Source: an uncultured Pseudomonadota bacterium
Lineage (GTDB): Bacteria; Myxococcota_A; UBA796; SXON01
DNA: 64,000 nt
Assembly: GCA_903844155.1 (NCBI GenBank)
Contig: CAIMSU010000259.1
Coordinates: 15,808 to 79,807 of the forward strand
Direction: 5' to 3'
The position numbers and the translations under genes were made by a program. The notes under the pieces were generated by a model that worked only from the letters and a program-made list of their open reading frames with translations, ran no database searches and was not told the origin of the DNA. Below, piece after piece: positions 14,063 through 54,109 of this stretch. Position 1 is the stretch's first letter. Every line of letters begins with the position of its first letter.

Positions 14063-15688
14063 TCAGGGCAGCGACGCCGTCAGCGCCTCGGCGTTCATCG
14101 TCCCCCACCCCGTCGGATGGTCCCAGCCCGGGCCCGCCGGAAACTGCTCGCTGCCCGTCGCGGTGACGTCGCGAAACGACGCTTGCACCGTCGCATCCCC
14201 ATAGAGCAGCGGGTTGAGGTAGCCCGTACCCGGCAAGCCGTGCGCCAACCGCCAGCCCGCCACGACCGCATCGCAGCCTGCGAACACGGGCGAGGCGAAG
14301 GAGGTCCCCATGTAGACCTCCCAGTTCCCCAGGTAGTACACGTAGAACTCGTTCCCGCCGGATGACGCGACGTCGTTCACCGCCCGCGTCGCGCCCGATG
14401 GCATCACGCCCAATTGCCATTCGGGAACGCCGAACGTGGCGCTGTCCCCCGTTCCCGAGTCCGCCCACGCGAATTCACCCGTCACGCGGCCGTCGGACAT
14501 CGTGAGCGTGGTCCCGCCGACGCACGTCACGTACGGGCTGTCGCACGGAACGTCAACCCCTGCGGTGTCCCCGCTCGCGGACGAGATGGTGATGCCAAGG
14601 GCTGCGCCTTCGGCGGCGCTCTCGTCGTAGGCAATCCGGAGCAGGTCCGGCTCCGAGTCCTCCCGGTGCGCGAAGGAGTCGCTGAGCACGTCCACGCCGC
14701 CCTCAGCGATGGCCTCGTTGAAGGTGTAGAGGAGGCTTGTGTTTCGCGAATCCGGCCCCGCGTAGGCGATGAGGTCGGCGCCCGGCGCCATCGCTCCCGA
14801 CCAGCTCACGTCCAGCGTCGCCTCGGCGTTGCGCGAGGGTACCGGCTCCATCGTTTGGATGACGACAGGATCAGCCCGGGTGATCCCGTTGGACATCCAA
14901 AAAGTCCCAACATCGTTGAACTTGAACATGCCCCCGATCACCAGCCCAAGCCGCGCGCCCTCGCCGTGGTAGCCCTCCGCCGAGAGGGGGGCCACACCGT
15001 AGGCTGTGGCGAGATCGGCCGGCGTGTAGGCTTCACGCCCCGCAGGTGGGTCATCCACGACGCTCCCAGCTTCGCCCGGCAATGGGCCCTGGTCGGGGGG
15101 CAGGTCGGCGGTGACGACGCCGGTCACGCGCGAGGCGATGTCCGTTGGCAGCCCCATCGTGCCGAGGGTGCAGTAGACCGGAATGGGGTCGCCACCCTGC
15201 TGCGGGTTGTCCCGGTTGCAGACGGGCAGGTTTGTCGCGAAGGCCGCATTGAAGTCCCCGACCGAACCCGTGAATTCAAGGAGCAGGCGGTTGGGCGCCA
15301 CGCGGGCAACGGTGAACCCGGCGCCCGTCAACCAGTCCGACACATACGCGACGTCCGTCTCGGTGGGGGCGTAAGCATCGGTCCACGCCGAGGGCGTCGG
15401 GTACCGTCGGAAGTTGGGATCCGAGGGGTCGGCGGAGGAGCGGATCTGCTCGGCGAGCGCGTCTTCGTTGCGCAGCGGGAAGCCCATCAGCGCCCGGAAT
15501 TCGTCACTCTCGGGCGCGGCCCCCTCGTCCGTGTAGACGCCTGTGAGGGGCTGGGCGAGGGCATCCGAGCTGGTCCTGGGCACATCATCGATCCCAAGGC
15601 CGCCGGGACCAGAGTCCGCGCCGGTGATGTCACGCCGACACGCAGGGGCCAGCAACGCAAAGGCCAAGGGGAGAATTCGAGAGCGCAT
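14063..15688 (-). CDS. S53 serine peptidase lipoprotein, paralog 2
   Basis: EATLD, SASGDT, GTSFASP, GWDHPTGWG; lipobox-like LLAPAC after ATG 15688. Confidence 0.9.
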   Translation of the reverse strand: MRSRILPLAFALLAPACRRDITGADSGPGGLGIDDVPRTSSDALAQPLTGVYTDEGAAPESDEFRALMGFPLRNEDALAEQIRSSADPSDPNFRRYPTPSAWTDAYAPTETDVAYVSDWLTGAGFTVARVAPNRLLLEFTGSVGDFNAAFATNLPVCNRDNPQQGGDPIPVYCTLGTMGLPTDIASRVTGVVTADLPPDQGPLPGEAGSVVDDPPAGREAYTPADLATAYGVAPLSAEGYHGEGARLGLVIGGMFKFNDVGTFWMSNGITRADPVVIQTMEPVPSRNAEATLDVSWSGAMAPGADLIAYAGPDSRNTSLLYTFNEAIAEGGVDVLSDSFAHREDSEPDLLRIAYDESAAEGAALGITISSASGDTAGVDVPCDSPYVTCVGGTTLTMSDGRVTGEFAWADSGTGDSATFGVPEWQLGVMPSGATRAVNDVASSGGNEFYVYYLGNWEVYMGTSFASPVFAGCDAVVAGWRLAHGLPGTGYLNPLLYGDATVQASFRDVTATGSEQFPAGPGWDHPTGWGTMNAEALTASLP

Positions 15689-15927
15689 CCGGGTTCCAGC
15701 AGCTCCCCGCAGCGTACCGCAGGCGGTCGCCCACCCGCCAGCGAAAGCGCTTGCCGGGAGGCTCACTAGCGTTTATCGCAAACGCTCGCGCGTTGCCAGA
15801 GAACGCGATCGCCCCCCACAAGTCCTGTCGTTTCCGTCAGATCTGAAGACGCCGACCGTCCGACGTTTTCGCAGGCCACACGCCGTCAATCGGTGTTAGG
15901 GTGGAGGAAGGAGTGTGACGCTTTCCC

Positions 15928-17325
15928 ATGCCGCCTGATGCGCCAATCCCCGGGACCGTAGCGGATGCTGCTTCCCCGCGCGATTCCGGTCATCCGGGGC
16001 GGAGGCCGGCGCGCTACCGAACCGTTGGATCCCTGGGCCGCGGCGGCACCGCCGAGGTCTCACTCGTGTAGGATCAAGCTGGCGCGTACTACGCGAGAAA
16101 GCTCGTGCCACTCCCTGTCGGCGACGCACGGGCTCGCGCGCGGGTGATGGCGGAAGGCCTCGTTCTCCGCTCCCTCTCCCACCCCAACATCGTGCGGGTG
16201 CACGACGTGTACGAGGAGGACGACACCCTGAACCTGGTCCTCGACTACGTGGAGGCCGGCTCGCTGTCCGAGCGGCTGGGTGCGGGGCCGATCCCGGAGG
16301 ACGAAGCTGTCGTGCTGATCTGCGAGGTGCTTGGCGCGCTCGCCGCATGCCACGCTGCGGGGGTCGTGCACCGGGACGTGAAGCCGGGCAACATCCTGAT
16401 CTCAGCGGACGGGACAACCCGCCTCGTTGATTTCGGCATCGCGAAGGCAGAGAGCGGTGAGCTTACGCGGACGGGCGAGGCCCTCGGCACCTGGGCGTTC
16501 ATGGCCCCGGAGCAGCGGCTCGACAGCCGGCGGGTCGACGCGCGCGCGGACGTGTACGGCGCAGGCGCCACGCTCTACACCATGCTCACCGGAGAGCCCC
16601 CGTTTGACCTTGCAAACCCGGTGCTCTCCGAGGATCGGATCGCCCGCCTTTCACCCCGGATGGCGGGGGTGGTGCGTCGCGCCACCAACGCCCGGCCCGA
16701 GGGGCGCTGGCCGAGCGCGCTGGCGATGCGGGAGGCGCTGCTCGGCCTGGAGGTCCCGTTCGCCGCCGAGGAGCCGAGCGTCGCCGACGCACCCAGGCCC
16801 GCGCTCGCCAATCCAAGGCGTTGGGTCACGAGCACCCTGGCCACCGTCGTCGGCATCGCGGTCATCGCCCTCGCCGCGGCGCACAACGTCACGAGCCCCG
16901 CCCCATTCGCGCCCGCCCCAGCGCCTCCCGCGCCCGCCGTCCTCGTCGCCGATCCGACGCCGCTCACGGCCCTGCCCGCCGTCGTGGCGGCAAAGGCGCC
17001 CCCGGCCCCGCACGCCGCCGCAAAGGCAGGAGCCGCCGTCGCCTCGCCTGGCCCCTCCCTCGCCTCACCCGCCCCCGCGCTCGCCGCCGTGGACGCACCT
17101 TCGCCCGCCGCCCCCGTGCGCACCGTGGTGAACAGCCTCCCATGGAGCGAGGTCGAGATCGACGGGCAGCCCGTCGGCCGCACGCCGTGGCGCGGAGACC
17201 TGGCGGCCGGGCCACATCGCATCCAGCTCACAACCGGCGATGGACGGACATCCGAGTCCACCACGAGCGGGTCGGAATCCACGGTCTGCTGGGATTTTTC
17301 CCGACAAGGTCGGTGCGCGCCGTGA
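15928..17325 (+). pseudogene. Ser/Thr protein kinase with TM and PEGA domain, interrupted by in-frame TAG at 16069..16071
   Basis: ATG 15928 after a purine-rich RBS-like tract; reads RYRTVGSLGRGGTAEVSLV*DQAGAYYARK in frame with HRDVKPGN, DFG, APE; PEGA-like VNSLPWSEVEIDG...TP at the C-terminus. Kinase identity is secure; pseudogene status is not. Confidence 0.75.
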
Positions 17326-47630: not shown

Positions 47631-49184
47631 TTGGGCACCGAAATTCTCGTCAATTCCACCGGCAAGGAAACCCGCGTCGCGCTGATGGAAGGCTCGCAGC
47701 TCTCCGAGCTGCACATCGATCGCGGCGTGGACCGCGGCTACGTCGGAAACGTCTACCTCGGAAAGGTCGTCCGCGTGCTTCCCGGCATGCAAGCGGCCTT
47801 TGTTGACGTTGGCATGGAGCGGGCCGCGTTCCTGTACGTCGGCGACATCTACCCGCAGTTCCTCGACGGCAAGAACCACGACGACGACGCGGACGACGAC
47901 GACGGCCCAGACCGCGGCCTCGACGAAGACGCGACCGTCGCGGAGGAGGGCCTGCCCCGCGGGGCCCCACGCCCCGGGCAACCTGCGATCCAGGATCTGC
48001 TGACGGAAGGCCAGGAGATCGTGGTCCAGGTCGCGAAGGACCCCATCGGCACGAAGGGCGCGCGCGTCACCACGCACATCACCCTCCCGGGCCGCTACCT
48101 CGTGTTCATGCCGACGGTCGACCACGTCGGCATCTCCCGTCGCATCGACCGGGACCGTGAGCGTCGGCGTTTGCGCGATTTCATCGAGAAGAGTCGCCCG
48201 AAGGGCGCCGGCTTCATCGTCCGCACCGTCTGCGCGACGCAGACCAACGCAACGCTGAAGACCGACATGAACTACCTTGTCGCAACCTGGGAAAAGATTC
48301 AGGCGGCGGCGACCACGAAAAAGGCCCCCGCGCCGTTGCACCTCGACCACGGCCTTGTGCTCCGCATCGTCCGGGACGCGTTCCACGAGGACGTGGACCG
48401 GATGGTCGTCGACAACCCGAAGCTTTTTGAGGAAGTGCAGGAATTCATGGTCGAATTCAGCCCCGAGCTCAAGGAGAAGGTGCACCTGTACCGGGGTGCC
48501 GAGCCGATGTTCGACAACTTTGGCGTCGAGGACGAGATCACGCGCGCGACTTCCCGGCGTGTGTGGCTGAAGAGCGGCGGCTACCTCGTCATCGACCAGA
48601 CCGAGGCGCTGACCGCGATCGACGTCAACTCGGGCAAATTCGTCGGTACGGCGAGCCTGGAGGAGACGACGCTGCGCGTGAACATGGAGGCGGTCAAGGA
48701 GATCGTCTACCAGCTCCGCCTCCGAAACATCGGCGGCATCATCATCCTCGACCTCATCGACATGGACAAGGAGCAGAACCGGGACAAGGTGTTCCGCGCG
48801 CTCGAGGAGGAGTTGAAGAAGGACCGCGCGCGCACGAACGCCCTGAAGATCTCCGAGCTCGGCCTGGTGCAAATGACGCGAAAGCGCGTGCAGGAGGACC
48901 TCGTCCGCTACCTTTCCGAGCCCTGCCCGACGTGCGAGGGCCGCGGGAACATCAAGTCGCGGCAGACGATCTGCTACGAGGTGTTCCGCGAATTGCAGCG
49001 CGAATCAACGCGCTCGCTGGCCGCGGCCACCCTGTACGTGAACGTGCACCCCAGCGTCGCGGACATGCTTTATGGCGAGGAGTTCAGCGTCTTCGAAGCG
49101 GTTGAGGCCAGGCTCGCGCGCAAGATCGTCGTCCGGGCGCTGCAGCACATGCACCAGGAGAAGTTCGAGGTTTACTCACGATAA
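47631..49184 (+). CDS. rng: Ribonuclease G/E family (Rne/Rng)
   Basis: GNVYLGKV.RVLPGMQAAFVD, QV.KDPIG.KGAR, TEALTAIDVNSG, LRNIGGIIILD.IDM, CPTCEGRG; TTG start. Confidence 0.95.
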   Translation: MGTEILVNSTGKETRVALMEGSQLSELHIDRGVDRGYVGNVYLGKVVRVLPGMQAAFVDVGMERAAFLYVGDIYPQFLDGKNHDDDADDDDGPDRGLDEDATVAEEGLPRGAPRPGQPAIQDLLTEGQEIVVQVAKDPIGTKGARVTTHITLPGRYLVFMPTVDHVGISRRIDRDRERRRLRDFIEKSRPKGAGFIVRTVCATQTNATLKTDMNYLVATWEKIQAAATTKKAPAPLHLDHGLVLRIVRDAFHEDVDRMVVDNPKLFEEVQEFMVEFSPELKEKVHLYRGAEPMFDNFGVEDEITRATSRRVWLKSGGYLVIDQTEALTAIDVNSGKFVGTASLEETTLRVNMEAVKEIVYQLRLRNIGGIIILDLIDMDKEQNRDKVFRALEEELKKDRARTNALKISELGLVQMTRKRVQEDLVRYLSEPCPTCEGRGNIKSRQTICYEVFRELQRESTRSLAAATLYVNVHPSVADMLYGEEFSVFEAVEARLARKIVVRALQHMHQEKFEVYSR

Positions 49185-49933
49185 TTGGCGTCGACGCCGT
49201 ACCACCGCCCGATCATGGCGCGCTCAGCAGTAGTGATCCCGGCCTGCAGCGCGGCTGCCAACGCGCCCGCGAGCGTGATCGCGGCAAAACACAGGTCCGT
49301 CCGCGCCGACCGCGCCGAGTAGACGACGAGCTGCCCCAGCGTGGGCGGCACGCCGTTTGACCCGACGAACTCGCCGATGATGGCGCCGATGACCGCGAGC
49401 CCGGCTGCAACGCGTAAACCGGCGAACAACGCCGGGAGTGCCGCGCGGAGGCGCAGGTCGAGCAGCACCTGCAGGGGCGAGGCGCCGTACAGCCGCAAGA
49501 GGTCCACCTGGTCCTGCGAGGGCGCCAGAAACCCCGTCCGCCCTGCCGAATGGATGGGGTAGATGCTTGCGACGAACGCCGTGGCCACAGCGACCGGCAG
49601 GCCGTAGCCGAGCCAGATCACGAGCAGCGGCGCGATTGCGACGATGGGGACGACCTGGAAGGCCAGCAGCCAGGGCGCGAGGAGCGCGCGACCAAAGCGG
49701 GAAGAATGGTCGATCATCGCCGTGAGTAGACCGACCGCGATTGCCAGCCCCAGCCCAGCCAGGGATGCCATGGCGGTCTGCGAGGCGGCCCCCAGAAGGC
49801 GAGTGCGCTCCGTCCAGAGGGCGATCGCGACCGCGTCGGGTGAGGCGAGCAGCAGCGGCCCGGCCCGATTCGCGAGGATCTCCCAGGCGAGCATGGCGAA
49901 GATGCCGCCAAGCAGGGCTTCAGACCGCTTCAA
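49172..49933 (-). CDS. NitT/TauT-family ABC transporter permease
   Basis: FQVVPIVAIAPLL, L.LYGAS..Q....LRL..ALP, AIIGEF. Confidence 0.9.
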   Translation of the reverse strand: MKRSEALLGGIFAMLAWEILANRAGPLLLASPDAVAIALWTERTRLLGAASQTAMASLAGLGLAIAVGLLTAMIDHSSRFGRALLAPWLLAFQVVPIVAIAPLLVIWLGYGLPVAVATAFVASIYPIHSAGRTGFLAPSQDQVDLLRLYGASPLQVLLDLRLRAALPALFAGLRVAAGLAVIGAIIGEFVGSNGVPPTLGQLVVYSARSARTDLCFAAITLAGALAAALQAGITTAERAMIGRWYGVDANYRE

Positions 49934-50606
49934 CGCTTGCCCCAGCGAGCGCCGCCAGAAGCGCAGCCTCCGTCAGATCGGACGTTCGGCCGTCGAGCAC
50001 GACCCGCGTTGGCGGGCCGACCAGCGCGACCACGCGGTCCGCGAGCTTCAATGCCTCCCCGAGGTCGTGCGTCACCATCAGCACGGTCCAGCCTTCCGCC
50101 CGCGCAACGGCGAGGAAATCCGCCTGTACAGCTCGGCGAGTGATCCCGTCCAACGCGGAGAAGGCCTCGTCGAGGAAAACGACTTCGGGGCGGGAGTAGA
50201 GGGCGCGGGCGATGCTGGCCCGCATCCGCTGACCGCCGGAGAGGGCATTCGGCAGCCTGCGCGCGTGAGCGGCCAGGCCGAGGCGGGCGAGGATGGGACC
50301 GGCGTCATCATCCGCCTCGCCCATCGACCGATACCGACCTGGCAATCGGACATTCTCCTCCAGCGTGAGCCATGGGAGGAGGGCGTGGTCCTGAAACACG
50401 AACGCCCGACGCTTCGGGACGCCGGAGATCACGCCCGCGGTAGGCTCACGAAGGCCCGCGATGAGGCGTAGCAGGGTGCTTTTGCCGCACCCGGAGGCCC
50501 CGACGAGCGCCGTGATCTCGGCGGGGGCGAAGGAGAGCGTCAACCCGGCGATGATCGCGGTGCCATCCACCTCGTAGCGGAGATCGGTCACGCCGACATG
50601 AAACAT
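49920..50606 (-). CDS. NitT/TauT-family ABC transporter ATP-binding protein
   Basis: GASGCGKST, FQDHALLPW, LSGGQRMR, LDEAFSALD, VTHD; ATG overlaps the folE TGA (TGATG). Confidence 0.92.
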   Translation of the reverse strand: MFHVGVTDLRYEVDGTAIIAGLTLSFAPAEITALVGASGCGKSTLLRLIAGLREPTAGVISGVPKRRAFVFQDHALLPWLTLEENVRLPGRYRSMGEADDDAGPILARLGLAAHARRLPNALSGGQRMRASIARALYSRPEVVFLDEAFSALDGITRRAVQADFLAVARAEGWTVLMVTHDLGEALKLADRVVALVGPPTRVVLDGRTSDLTEAALLAALAGASVEAV

Positions 50607-51136
50607 CACGCCGGCCCCAGCAGCCCCGCCACTGTCTCCGGATCCGGTCCCGCAAACGCCATGGTCTCGACCTCGCCCGGGCTCCGCGGTCCCCGCATCT
50701 CCATGCACATGTGGCGCGCGCGGAGCCGCACGACGACCGGCGCGAGGAGCGCGGCCGCGAGGTGCTGGGCGACCTGCTCGCCAACACGCTCCTGCAGCTG
50801 CGGTTGACGGCTGAAGTGCTGCAAGACGCGCGGGACGGCACCGAGGCCGATCAGCCGGCCGCGTGGGAGAAAGCCGACGTCTGCCGTGCCGAAGAACGGG
50901 AGGAGGTGGTGCACGCAGAGCGCGTGGAACGGAACCCCACGAAGCACCACGGGCCCGAACGATGGCGTCGCCAACACCTCCAACGCGGGCCCCTCCCCCT
51001 TCGGCCCATATGCCCGCAGCACCTCCAGCCAACGCGCGGCAGTGCCATCGCCCTCGGGGTCGCGCGAGTAGCCGAGCGCGTCGAGGACGGCCTGCACGTG
51101 CCGCTCGAGGTCGTCGCTGGCGGGAATCGCGTTCAC
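50606..51136 (-). CDS. folE: GTP cyclohydrolase I-like protein (divergent FolE)
   Basis: LCVHHLLPFFG, RQPQLQER, HMCMEMRG; GTG start at 51136. Confidence 0.85.
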   Translation of the reverse strand: MNAIPASDDLERHVQAVLDALGYSRDPEGDGTAARWLEVLRAYGPKGEGPALEVLATPSFGPVVLRGVPFHALCVHHLLPFFGTADVGFLPRGRLIGLGAVPRVLQHFSRQPQLQERVGEQVAQHLAAALLAPVVVRLRARHMCMEMRGPRSPGEVETMAFAGPDPETVAGLLGPA

Positions 51137-51205
51137 CCCGCCGAGATAACGCGAGCGGCCCCGGCCGTGTTTTCCGGATAAAGCGCAGCCCCTCCAGAGC
51201 ACGCC

Positions 51206-54109
51206 ATGTCCCGCGACCGTCTCCTCCCCGAGCTGCCCCCCCAGGACTCTTTTGCACGGCGCCACATCGGCACGCGCGACGAGGATGAGCGCGCCATGCT
51301 CGCCGCCCTCGGCGTGCCCAGCCTGGACGCCCTCATCGCCCAGACCGTCCCCCAGAACATCCGCAGCGCCCGACCCCTGAACGTCCCCGAGGCGGCCTCC
51401 GAGCGCGACGCTGTTGCCGAACTATCGGCGATGATGGCAAAGAACCAGGTCCTCACGAGCTACATCGGGATGGGCTACCACGACACCGTGACACCCCCGG
51501 TGATCCTGCGGAACGTCCTTGAAAATCCGGGCTGGTACACGCAATACACGCCCTATCAGGCGGAGATCTCGCAGGGCCGCATGGAGGCGCTGCTCAACTT
51601 CCAGACCATGGTCTGCGACCTGACCGGCCTCCCCGTCGCCAACGCCTCGCTGCTCGACGAGGGAACGGCAGCGGCCGAGGCGATGAGCATGAGCTTCGGC
51701 ATCTCGGCTGCGGCGCAGGAACGAGGGGCAACCGCCTTTTTCATCTCCCGTCGCTGCCATCCGCAAACCATCGCGGTCGTCCGCACCCGGGCCGCCGCTC
51801 TCGGCCTCTCCGTGCTCGTCGGCGACCCGGCGACGTACGATTTTGGCACGGCGATCTTCGGGGCGCTCCTGCAATACCCAGGGACGGACGGTGCGATCGA
51901 GGACTACGCCGAGTTCGTCGAGAAGGTGCATGCCGCGGGCGCGCTCGTCACGATGGCGACCGACCTGCTCGCGCTCACGCTCCTGCGTCCGCCCGGTGAG
52001 CTTGGCGCCGACATCTGCGTCGGTTCCGCCCAGCGCTTTGGCGTGCCGTTCGGCTACGGCGGGCCCCACGCCGCGTTCTTCTCCACGCGCGACGAGCACA
52101 AGCGGCACATGCCCGGCCGGCTCATCGGGGTGAGCATCGACGCGCAGGGAAAGCCCGCCTTGCGCCTCGCATTGCAGACCCGCGAGCAGCACATCCGGCG
52201 CGACAAGGCCACGTCCAACATCTGCACCGCGCAGGTATTGCTGGCGGTGATGGCGTCGATGTACGCGGTCTGGCACGGCCCCGAGGGCCTCACGCGCATC
52301 GCAAAGCGCGTGAACGGGCTTGCACGCGCGCTCGCGGGCGGGCTGAACCGGCTCGGCTGCCCGACCCGGCACCCGCATCGCTACTTCGACACCGTCGCCG
52401 TCAAGGTGAAGTCGGCGTCCGCCGTCTTGAGCCTCGCTCGCGATGCCGGCTACAACCTCCGCGACCTGTCGGACAGCGCCGGCAACGCCGTCGGCATCGC
52501 GCTTGACGAGGCGACCACCAGCGCGGACATCGCCGCCCTGCTCCGGGTCTTTGCCCGCTCCGTCGGCCGCGATTCGCTGGGCTTTGACATCGCCAGCACG
52601 TCGGCGCCCGAGGACCTCGGCCCCTTCGCCCGGACCAGCACCTTCCTGACCCACCCCGTGTTCCACGCGCACCGCACCGAGCACGAGATGCTCCGCTATA
52701 TCCACAAGCTTGAAAGCAAGGATCTCTCGCTGACCACCTCGATGATCCCGCTCGGCTCCTGCACGATGAAGCTGAACGCGACGAGCGAGATGATCCCGGT
52801 CACCTGGAACACGGTCGGCGGCATTCACCCCTTTGCACCTGCCGATCAGGCCCGCGGCTACCAGGAGATGTTCAAGCAGTTGGAGGCCTGGCTCTCGGAC
52901 ATCACTGGGTTCGCCGCTACCTCCCTGCAGCCCAACGCGGGTAGCCAGGGCGAGTATGCCGGCCTGCTCGTGATCCGGCGCTACCAGGAGGCGCGTGGGC
53001 AGGGCCATCGAAACGTGTGCTTGATCCCCGCGAGTGCCCACGGCACCAACCCGGCGAGCGCCGTGATGGCGGGCATGAAGGTGGTCGTCACCAAATGCGA
53101 CACGTCAGGAAACATCGACCTTGCGGACCTGCGCGCGAAGGCGCAGGAGCACAGCGCCAACCTCACTGCGTTCATGGTGACCTACCCGTCGACCCACGGC
53201 GTCTTTGAGAGCGCGATCAAGGACATCTGCGCGATCATCCACGAACATGGCGGCCAGGTGTACATGGACGGCGCGAACATGAACGCGCAGGTCGGCCTGT
53301 CCAGCCCCGGCGGCATCGGCGCGGATGTCTGCCACTTGAACCTCCACAAGACCTTCTGCATCCCCCACGGCGGCGGGGGTCCAGGTATGGGCCCGATTTG
53401 CGTGGCCAGCCACCTCGCCCCCTATCTGCCCGGGCACCCCGTGATCCCGACCGGGGGCACCACCGCGATCGGCCCGATCAGCGCGGCGCCGTGGGGCTCA
53501 GCGTCGATCCTGCCCATCCCGTGGGCCTACATTCGCATGATGGGGCCTGACGGACTGAAGCGGGCCACAGAGATCGCAATTCTCAACGCGAACTACATGG
53601 CGCACCGCCTCGCCCCGCATTTTCCCGTGCTTTACACGGGCGAAAACGGGCGCGTCGCGCACGAGTGCATCGTGGATGTGCGCCAGCTCAAGGCCGGCAG
53701 CGGCGTGGAGGTGGAGGACATCGCCAAGCGCCTGATGGACTACGGTTTCCATGCGCCAACCATCAGTTTTCCCGTCGCCGGGACGATGATGATCGAGCCC
53801 ACCGAGTCCGAGTCCAAGGCCGAGATCGACCGGCTGTGCGATGCGCTCATCGCCATTCGCGGTGAGATTACCAAGGTCGAGGCGGGCGAATGGTCGAGAA
53901 CGGACAATCCGTTCAAGAACGCCCCGCACACGTGTGAGATCGTGGTCGCGGACGAGTGGACGCACCCGTACTCGCGCACAACAGCGGCGTTCCCGGCGCC
54001 CTGGGTCAAGGCGAACAAGTTCTGGCCGACGGTCTCCCGCATCAACAATGTGTACGGCGACAGAAACGTTGTTTGTACCTGCCCACCGGTCTCGGAGTAC
54101 GAGCAGTAG
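51206..54109 (+). CDS. gcvP: Glycine dehydrogenase (glycine cleavage P protein)
   Basis: [59 protein letters not shown]. Confidence 0.99.

Follow-up and report, generated by a model that had tools for sequence, protein, structure and literature searches.

A conserved operon joins a FolE-like protein with an altered triphosphate clamp to a NitT/TauT-type ABC importer

GTP cyclohydrolase I of type IA (GCH-I, FolE), as it is known from E. coli, Thermus (1wm9) and M. tuberculosis (9p8z), carries a Cys/His/Cys zinc site together with His112, His179, the pair Gln151-Glu152 and the arginines Arg65, Arg139 and Arg185. Lys68, Ser135 and Lys136 of the E. coli enzyme are reportedly part of a triphosphate clamp, and in the first half-reaction the imidazole ring is opened reversibly to give a 5-formamidopyrimidine; mutants in His179 reportedly halt at this formamide intermediate. 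The FolE fold has been repurposed once before, in the preQ0 reductase QueF, which acts on a free 7-deazaguanine base. Here we describe a FolE-like protein encoded in the window, a 64,000-nucleotide stretch of contig CAIMSU010000259.1 (C259) from an uncultured bacterium assigned to Myxococcota_A (assembly GCA_903844155.1), where its gene forms an operon with the ATPase and permease genes of an ATP-binding cassette (ABC) importer. The protein shares with FolE the fold and every residue named in our first sentence, but differs in three residues of the clamp, in a diverged C-terminal helix region, in scores far under the FolE cut-offs, in the place of its gene within an importer operon, and in that FolE2 is the likely housekeeping enzyme of its genome. 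We tentatively propose that it is a repurposed T-fold zinc enzyme that would act on an imported, guanine-like heterocycle lacking a triphosphate.

The FolE-like protein and QueF belong to a common superfamily and are both short, unimodular T-fold proteins (~165 residues; PMC5041015). The Cys and Glu of the base pocket persist in each of them, and both dispense with binding of a nucleotide phosphate, which for the FolE-like protein is a prediction. Unlike QueF, the FolE-like protein keeps the full zinc site, lacks the QueF motif and gives no match to PF14489. The transporter also has described counterparts. The ThiXYZ system of Bacillus halodurans, with TenA/YlmB, resembles the present locus in combining a NitT/TauT-type importer and a ThiY-like substrate-binding protein (SBP) with an adjacent hydrolase gene for the imported base; ThiY reportedly binds an aminopyrimidine in the salvage of the thiamine pyrimidine. 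In Proteobacteria, purine operons under control of a xanthine riboswitch (the "NMT1 motif") join NMT1-like SBP and TauA-type ABC genes to genes for purine-base enzymes such as dioxygenases and guanine-deaminase-like proteins, and NMT1/TauA-type importers therefore serve purine bases (PMC7373994). The cluster described here differs from those operons in having no riboswitch, a FolE-fold partner instead of a dioxygenase or deaminase, and a host from another phylum; like them, some of its relatives carry a 2-oxoglutarate (2OG) oxygenase and a Rieske protein. It also recalls the isozyme pairs of FolE and FolE2, because one genome again holds a PF01227 and a PF02649 protein, but here the FolE member has a remodelled site and a transporter, and FolE2 has a C-terminal helix-turn-helix (HTH) domain and lies beside QueD.

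The source genome (G000) has 68% G+C, spans 8.1 Mb in 375 contigs and is 95.6% complete. The three genes of the cluster are read from the reverse strand of the window as follows.

50606..51136, reverse strand: FolE-like T-fold protein, 176 aa, start GTG at 51136, stop TGA at 50608-50606, PF01227 at 111.5 bits
49920..50606, reverse strand: ABC transporter ATPase, 228 aa, start ATG at 50606-50604, stop TGA at 49922-49920, PF00005 at 99.9 bits
49172..49933, reverse strand: ABC importer permease of the SsuC/TauC/ThiX type, 253 aa from TTG at 49933, PF00528 at 76.8 bits

The stop codon of the FolE-like gene and the start codon of the ATPase gene overlap as TGATG, with the A of TGA shared with ATG. 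The ATPase stop and the permease start overlap by 14 nt, a figure that hinges on the TTG start, and an in-frame ATG lies 13 codons downstream of this TTG. Both overlaps, and a gap of 69 nt to the divergent gcvP gene, had been described in an earlier note made from the DNA sequence, and the coordinates of the open reading frames (ORFs) confirm them.

The AlphaFold2 (AF2) model of the FolE-like protein has a pLDDT of 95, and its top fold matches in the PDB are all GCH-I, with TM scores of 0.74-0.85 over 168-182 columns. The matches include the enzymes of Thermus, M. tuberculosis and human, whose modelled chains have 184-190 residues, and this coverage does not bear out the short N-terminus that the earlier note had described. 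The protein lies well above the Pfam cut-off for PF01227 (27 bits), but its scores against the NCBIfam FolE models are all below the cut-offs (106.6 bits versus 162, 93.7 versus 174, 88.8 versus 181.6 and 75.1 versus 202), in agreement with its previous description as an altered FolE paralog. The C-terminal helix region, comprising the last ~20 residues, fails to align to the FolE profiles, and the matches end at approximately position 165-174 of 189.

Residues were mapped by alignment to the solved GCH-I chains; the E. coli numbering was checked on the E. coli sequence, whose motifs fell at their published positions. The zinc ligands Cys74, His77 and Cys144 (C110, H113 and C181 in E. coli), the catalytic histidines His76 and His142 (H112 and H179), and the phosphate-binding arginines Arg35, Arg103 and Arg148 (R65, R139 and R185) are all kept. 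So is the guanine-anchoring Glu, which lies in a QxQER motif that reads QLQER (Q115-E116, corresponding to Q151-E152). By contrast with these, three of the six residues of the triphosphate clamp (Arg65, Lys68, Ser135, Lys136, Arg139 and Arg185) are lost: Glu38 replaces Lys68, and GLSK has become GLGA, with Gly99 in place of Ser135 and Ala100 in place of Lys136. The alignment thus upholds what had been noticed earlier about the zinc ligands, the Glu, the MRG arginine and the GLGA sequence, and adds the replacement of Lys68, which had been missed. The exchange of E111 for Val75, which turns CEHH into CVHH, had also been taken as a sign of altered function. This change and the sequence CMEMRG were considered as diagnostic and rejected, because both are present in proteins above the FolE cut-offs. 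In particular, acidobacterial proteins with CAHH or CSHH retain GLSK and the His and pass these cut-offs (233 bits), so Ala or Val at position 75 is not diagnostic.

A search of 5.8 billion proteins returned 219 relatives of the FolE-like protein, nearly all of 165-180 aa, and only 12 matches at E<=1e-30 were found among 1.84 billion representative proteins. The branch is therefore small, lineage-restricted and specific to Myxococcota, and the genomes of the relatives are on record as Myxococcota or "Deltaproteobacteria" metagenome-assembled genomes (MAGs). Public records name these proteins "GTP cyclohydrolase I", and a literature search for this FolE-like subfamily found no publication. We counted residues in the best 120 of the 219 relatives. 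None of them varies at C74, H76, C144, E116, R141 or E146, and 119 share H77. Position 75 is Ala or Val and never Glu, and 117 of the 120 have Gly at position 99. At position 100 there is Ala, Gly, Ser or Trp and in no case Lys, and at position 38 there is Glu, Ser, Asp or Ala. Position 142, the equivalent of His179, is Gln in 92 relatives and His in 28, and the window's protein has His.

Motif comparison and a tree were based on 80 loci from a scan of one genome per species. Loss of Lys136, usually together with loss of Lys68, characterizes a clade of 42 rows (support 99). Within it, on a long branch, is a clade of 25 rows (support 97) that includes the window's protein. Members of the clade score 107-122 bits against FolE models with cut-offs of 162-202, whereas two other Lys-less proteins, L030 and L033, reach 188 and 182 bits and exceed the NCBIfam FolE subfamily cut-off of 162; a third, L034, falls just under it (161.5). 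Four clade members that are not linked to a transporter have Trp at position 100 and occur beside a canonical FolE of ~240 bits. One transporter-less member whose gene overlaps that of a phosphofructokinase, P0084, has lost the MRG arginine as well (CVELTQG).

The ATPase has the Walker A motif GASGCGKST, the signature LSGGQ and the Walker B motif VVFLDE. Its best NCBIfam matches are nitrate, sulfonate and taurine ATPases, all under cut-off, and the permease weakly matches the NCBIfam models of the SsuC, TauC and NtrB permeases. With an ATPase and a BPD_transp_1 permease both present, the cluster encodes these components of a type I ABC importer. Overlapping genes in the order FolE-like, ATPase, permease were found at 16 loci, with 48-75% identity and unrelated flanks, and L096 and L097 have this order as well. 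On the tree, the label "ABC-linked" requires 4 changes, compared to a mean of 15 for shuffled labels. The linkage to the transporter, on which the earlier interpretation had leaned, is thus kept across the 97%-supported clade. An SBP gene of the NMT1 family (PF09084) comes next in L004-L007, L012, L013, L018, L021, L096 and L097. L004 and L005 carry a small 2OG-Fe(II) oxygenase gene ahead of the SBP gene, and L004 has a Rieske protein gene after it.

The ATPase, at 228 aa, has no C-terminal regulatory domain, and the FolE-like and ATPase genes are translationally coupled. Both features would suit a non-catalytic FolE-like protein that senses a ligand or regulates the short ATPase as its partner, as in trans-inhibition of uptake, and a sensor had been raised in the earlier note too. 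We regard this as improbable: the zinc ligands and the equivalents of His112 and Glu152 are invariant or nearly so in the 120 relatives, as is typical of a working active site, and clade members also exist without any transporter.

There is no binding-protein gene within the window, as had been observed before. The importer does not lack a binding protein, however, and the suggestion that an orphan NMT1/THI5-like protein might be found elsewhere was borne out. The only PF09084 match in the genome lies outside the window, at 39955-40896 of contig C349, and the encoded protein carries a lipoprotein signal, LILVAC. Its identity to the operon-encoded SBPs of two relatives is 63% (L004) and 49% (L006), in parallel with the 58% and 51% identity of the FolE-like proteins in the same two comparisons. 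The gene has an unannotated ORF and a PF04185 phosphoesterase gene as its neighbours. The nearest relative has an orphan SBP arrangement too, downstream of dnaK. Judged by these identities, the C349 protein is evidently the ortholog of the operon-encoded SBPs; and since the genome keeps this ortholog, in an orphan placement like that of the nearest relative, the importer is complete, with its SBP gene moved from an ancestral operon that ended with it. Many FolE-like and SBP homologs also list the same longest-contig value in the search tables (e.g. 289087, 101454, 97896, 34982), which fits co-location. Together, these results show that the FolE-derived branch is real, conserved and rare, and that it is tied to a complete ABC importer.

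The best structural neighbours of the SBP model are ThiY with formylaminopyrimidine (3ix1; the ligand is N-formyl-4-amino-5-aminomethyl-2-methylpyrimidine) and a thiamin-bound SBP (4nmy), at TM 0.75-0.76, followed by Thi5, SsuA, TauA and PqqT. ThiY is also the best PDB sequence match, but at an E value of 2.8e-6, 19% identity and TM 0.75. A planar N-heterocycle rather than a sulfonate as the ligand is therefore only a lead, drawn from likeness to solved proteins. Since the best sequence and structure matches are ThiY in its formylaminopyrimidine-bound form and a thiamin-binding SBP, and since one part of the FolE reaction hydrolyses a formamide carried by a pyrimidine, the FolE-like protein could stand in for the YlmB deformylase of the ThiXYZ/TenA pathway of thiamine-pyrimidine salvage. 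This reading is disfavoured, and we consider it very improbable. TenA (PF03070) is absent from all 10 ABC-linked genomes (G000-G009, the source genome included), ThiC and ThiD are present so that the hydroxymethylpyrimidine is made de novo, and neither the window nor the three loci L003, L004 and L006 yielded a thiamine pyrophosphate (TPP) riboswitch, with upstream intergenic regions in relatives as short as 32-112 nt. The enzyme is also of a different fold from its ThiXYZ-linked counterpart.

The formylaminopyrimidine bound by the closest solved relative of the SBP bears on another proposal, in which imported formamidopyrimidines (Fapy), such as FapyG from oxidised DNA, would be closed to guanine, or deformylated, by the FolE-like protein. 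The reported reversibility of the first FolE half-reaction and the reported halt of His179 mutants at the 5-formamidopyrimidine would suit such a reversal, as do the Gln at position 179 in most clade members and the loss of phosphate residues; because of that halt, an enzyme with Gln at position 179 that is supplied by a ThiY-like SBP could convert Fapy bases and guanine into each other. Set against this, the window's own protein has His at this position, the SBP is only distantly related to ThiY, and Fapy-related partner genes are absent. We judge this route quite unlikely, and treat it as one special version of the broader proposal of a repurposed enzyme.

The window's gene is the only PF01227 match in its genome, and a second, canonical folE, for which the earlier note had proposed to look, is not present. 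A second GTP cyclohydrolase I is present, in the form of FolE2, at 12477-13253 of contig C366 (282 bits against Pfam PF02649, and 259.6 bits versus a cut-off of 215 for the NCBIfam equivalog). FolE2 occurs in all 10 ABC-linked genomes (275-297 bits) and canonical FolE in none, and FolE2 is likely the housekeeping GTP cyclohydrolase I of the source genome. The FolE2 of this genome has 388 aa and a C-terminal HTH domain of the XRE/HipB type, and its gene is divergent from that of a QueD-like 6-pyruvoyltetrahydropterin synthase homolog (PTPS). Similar FolE2 open frames of 379-388 aa occur in related genomes, and such an enzyme-regulator fusion seems unusual. A gene of the type RibB plus degenerate GTP-cyclohydrolase-II-like domain lies ~2.5 kb from FolE2 (region C366:12477-16725, part of which is covered by L002). 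Replacement of a missing GTP cyclohydrolase II by the FolE-like protein was ruled out, because PF00925 is present in all 21 genomes of the comparison set.

With FolE2 in the same genome, the FolE-like protein could still be a working cyclohydrolase I, namely a zinc-dependent isozyme that uses GTP with a reshaped phosphate site, or GMP or guanosine, and whose place in the operon reflects co-regulation or chance. Pairs of FolE and FolE2 are common in bacteria, and FolE2 is Zur-regulated; moreover, the window's protein has every catalytic residue, His179 included. This reading is possible, although we hold it to be less likely than not to apply, because Lys68, Ser135 and Lys136 are all gone, the branch is long and well supported with scores far below the FolE cut-offs, the overlapping, co-oriented importer genes are kept across deep divergence, and His179 is replaced by Gln in most of the 120 relatives, a position at which E. 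coli mutants reportedly halt at the formamide intermediate. A possible retained GTP cyclohydrolase activity stands as a rival to the earlier idea of an enzyme or sensor for an imported, non-phosphorylated compound, of which the guanine-like substrate without phosphates is a reasonable inference.

Several observations weigh against repurposing, and most of them favour a cyclohydrolase. The arginines R35, R103 and R148 are still present. In G010, G011 and G012 (loci L017, L020 and L022, which belong to the 25-row clade and have His179), the FolE-like protein is the only PF01227 match and GCH-I homolog, FolE2 is absent and HPPK is present; the active-site residues of these three proteins are nearly identical to those of the window's protein, except that L022 has Ala for Arg65. 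Likewise, in G016, G018 and G019, a Lys-less protein from outside the clade with Gln for His179 is the sole GCH-I homolog beside HPPK; the Lys-less L030, L033 and L034, with scores above or just under the FolE subfamily cut-off, are sole copies in genomes with QueC and HPPK. Some sole-copy cases could reflect MAG incompleteness, but incomplete assemblies alone can hardly account for six such genomes from three lineages. Dihydroneopterin phosphate may therefore still be a product of the remodelled site, and because these six genomes have no other GCH-I homolog, a remodelled working cyclohydrolase stays a serious rival. In addition, the operon has no substrate-specific partner gene that is consistently present, and some clade members have no adjacent transporter and are located after a phosphofructokinase gene. 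A riboswitch was sought with Rfam in the window and in L003, L004 and L006, and none of its families was matched at gathering scores in the whole window or in these loci.

We nevertheless tentatively favour a repurposed enzyme, and the route that we envisage is as follows. The three genes would supply the cytoplasmic and membrane half of a NitT/TauT-type importer, plus a repurposed member of the FolE fold. In the periplasm, the ThiY-like NMT1 lipoprotein encoded on C349 would capture a planar compound that resembles an aminopyrimidine or a purine, and the ATPase and permease would bring the captured heterocycle into the cell. There the FolE-like protein, whose synthesis would be coupled to that of the ATPase by the overlap of their stop and start codons, would bind the heterocycle with the conserved Glu116 (E. 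coli Glu152), and a zinc-bound water (Cys74/His77/Cys144, with His76) would act on it. We infer both this action and the nature of the compound. Because half of the triphosphate clamp is lost, the substrate is most likely a free base or another non-triphosphorylated derivative: a guanine, 7-deazaguanine, formamidopyrimidine or pterin.

A 7-deazaguanine substrate leads to a further version of this proposal, in which the SBP and importer would take up preQ0, preQ1, queuine or a related compound and the FolE-like protein would convert it or hand it on. None of the 10 ABC-linked genomes has QueC or QueF, and each of them has two or three copies of full-length Tgt. In the source genome, the two Tgt copies (C147:36097-37116 and C232:139136-140188) are both above the TIGR00430 equivalog cut-off, and both read DEC...GGLSVGE, which corresponds to the preQ1-type pocket of the Z. 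mobilis Tgt. The same genome has QueA (348 bits versus a cut-off of 324), QueE (267 bits) and the QueD-like PTPS with its CxxxHGH motif. PF14489 (QueF) gave no match in this genome at E<=0.01, and tblastn searches for QueF, QueC and YhhQ, the last with an E. coli sequence, found nothing there, which is weak evidence. These genomes therefore need preQ1, while the established routes for its synthesis or uptake are missing from them. A FolE-derived zinc enzyme that makes the form used by the two preQ1-type Tgt proteins would explain Tgt and QueA in the absence of QueC and QueF, and QueF itself, a nitrile reductase, is a sister of the FolE-like protein in the same fold. According to a study from 2024, more queuosine-precursor transporters are still to be discovered, and ABC candidates are listed there as untested (PMC11130926). 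The known ones (QPTR/YhhQ, PF02592, and the QueT/QrtT S-component of ECF transporters) differ from the type I ABC importer described here.

We consider the queuosine version unlikely. The gap in QueC and QueF is lineage-wide and extends to genomes without ABC linkage, so it represents one evolutionary event and not ten, and the presence of QueD and QueE suggests instead that QueC and QueF have been replaced by as yet unrecognized proteins. Salvage of preQ1 requires no enzyme, and there is no obvious chemistry for a zinc hydrolase; the FolE-like protein keeps its zinc site and has no QueF NADPH motif. Finally, a queuosine gene lies near only 1 of ~16 FolE-like/ABC loci. This is L013, where a third Tgt homolog of 662 aa, fused to an MnmC-type S-adenosylmethionine (SAM) methyltransferase domain (PF05430), is encoded 2 kb downstream of the SBP gene (14840-16828, forward strand), and it speaks for the queuosine version as far as it goes.

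Long frames like this Tgt fusion occur in G004 (C192), G007 (C2) and G009 (C35). Two full-length, bacterial-type Tgt paralogs, both above the TIGR00430 cut-off, are also present in G001-G013, G015, G017 and G020; among these genomes together with G000, QueC is absent from 17 of 17 and QueF from 14 of 17. The QueC-bearing G014, G016, G018 and G019 have a single Tgt each. In the source genome, QueA and a QueA-like paralog are encoded on C153 and C341. Weak QueC matches in this genome are due to two adjacent genes for WbuX-like PP-loop amidotransferases (C10:5883-7132), whose products are rich in Lys, Asn, Ile and Tyr; this composition suggests that C10 is a foreign or contaminant contig, unlike the rest of the 68% G+C genome.

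If the FolE-like protein is indeed a repurposed enzyme, it would represent a second, independent repurposing of the FolE fold, in which the metal centre was kept, the nucleotide handle removed and the gene joined to an importer, and the annotation "GTP cyclohydrolase I" may be wrong for this clade. Finding its substrate would add a new step to the salvage or catabolism of bases of the purine, pterin or deazapurine type, and a new class of ligand to those of the ThiY/NMT1 binding proteins. If the protein is instead a cyclohydrolase I, then FolE can dispense with Lys68, Ser135 and Lys136, and some lineages even with His179, and the model of its active site would have to be revised. The gap in QueC and QueF with duplicated Tgt is a separate problem that the FolE-like/ABC cluster makes testable.

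The surroundings of the cluster in the window comprise the following features.

51137..51205, no strand: intergenic region of 69 nt that separates the divergent FolE-like and gcvP genes
51206-54109, forward strand: gcvP, with its ATG at 51206, 69 nt from the FolE-like start
47631-49184, forward strand: RNase G gene, converging on the permease gene

The earlier note had read the proximity of gcvP as a link to folate. A functional link to gcvP was rejected, because a 529-aa Amidase_2/MYXO-CTERM gene stands between gcvP and the FolE-like gene in L003 and L010, the closest relatives, and the other loci have other neighbours. Direct adjacency of the two genes was seen only in the source genome, and distant relatives have quite different neighbours. 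The intervening gene of L003 (6415-8004) encodes a secreted protein with Amidase_2 and CarboxypepD_reg domains and a MYXO-CTERM tail, and its stop codon overlaps the FolE-like start. It is missing from this position in the window, and its best homolog in the source genome lies on C109 (46% identity). The 69-nt gap must carry both promoters, and no sigma-70-like match was found in it.

L004, L006, L096, L097 and most ABC-linked loci have a divergent pair of genes 32-112 nt from the FolE-like gene, which encode a ~420-aa tetratricopeptide repeat (TPR) protein and a haloacid dehalogenase (HAD) phosphatase. In the source genome the two genes are found away from the cluster, flanked by a thiolase-like gene and hsp33 (C350:8598-10579). 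The recurring neighbours, namely the TPR and HAD pair, a B12-radical-SAM HpnJ-like gene and phosphofructokinase, were considered as partners of the cluster and rejected, because in the source genome they are scattered over C350 and C28 with unrelated genes adjacent. They are best read as inherited synteny, and the HAD phosphatase may have a role. Among transporter-less clade members, whose neighbours held nothing informative, the FolE-like start overlaps the phosphofructokinase stop as ATGA in L099 (6928-8534) and L100 (6940-8501). A small radical SAM gene that follows the FolE-like gene in L099 was examined as a candidate QueE and is not QueE. At the other end of the cluster in the window, no terminator-like site was seen between the permease and RNase G genes, and the 3' ends of these two convergent genes overlap by 13 nt (49172-49184).

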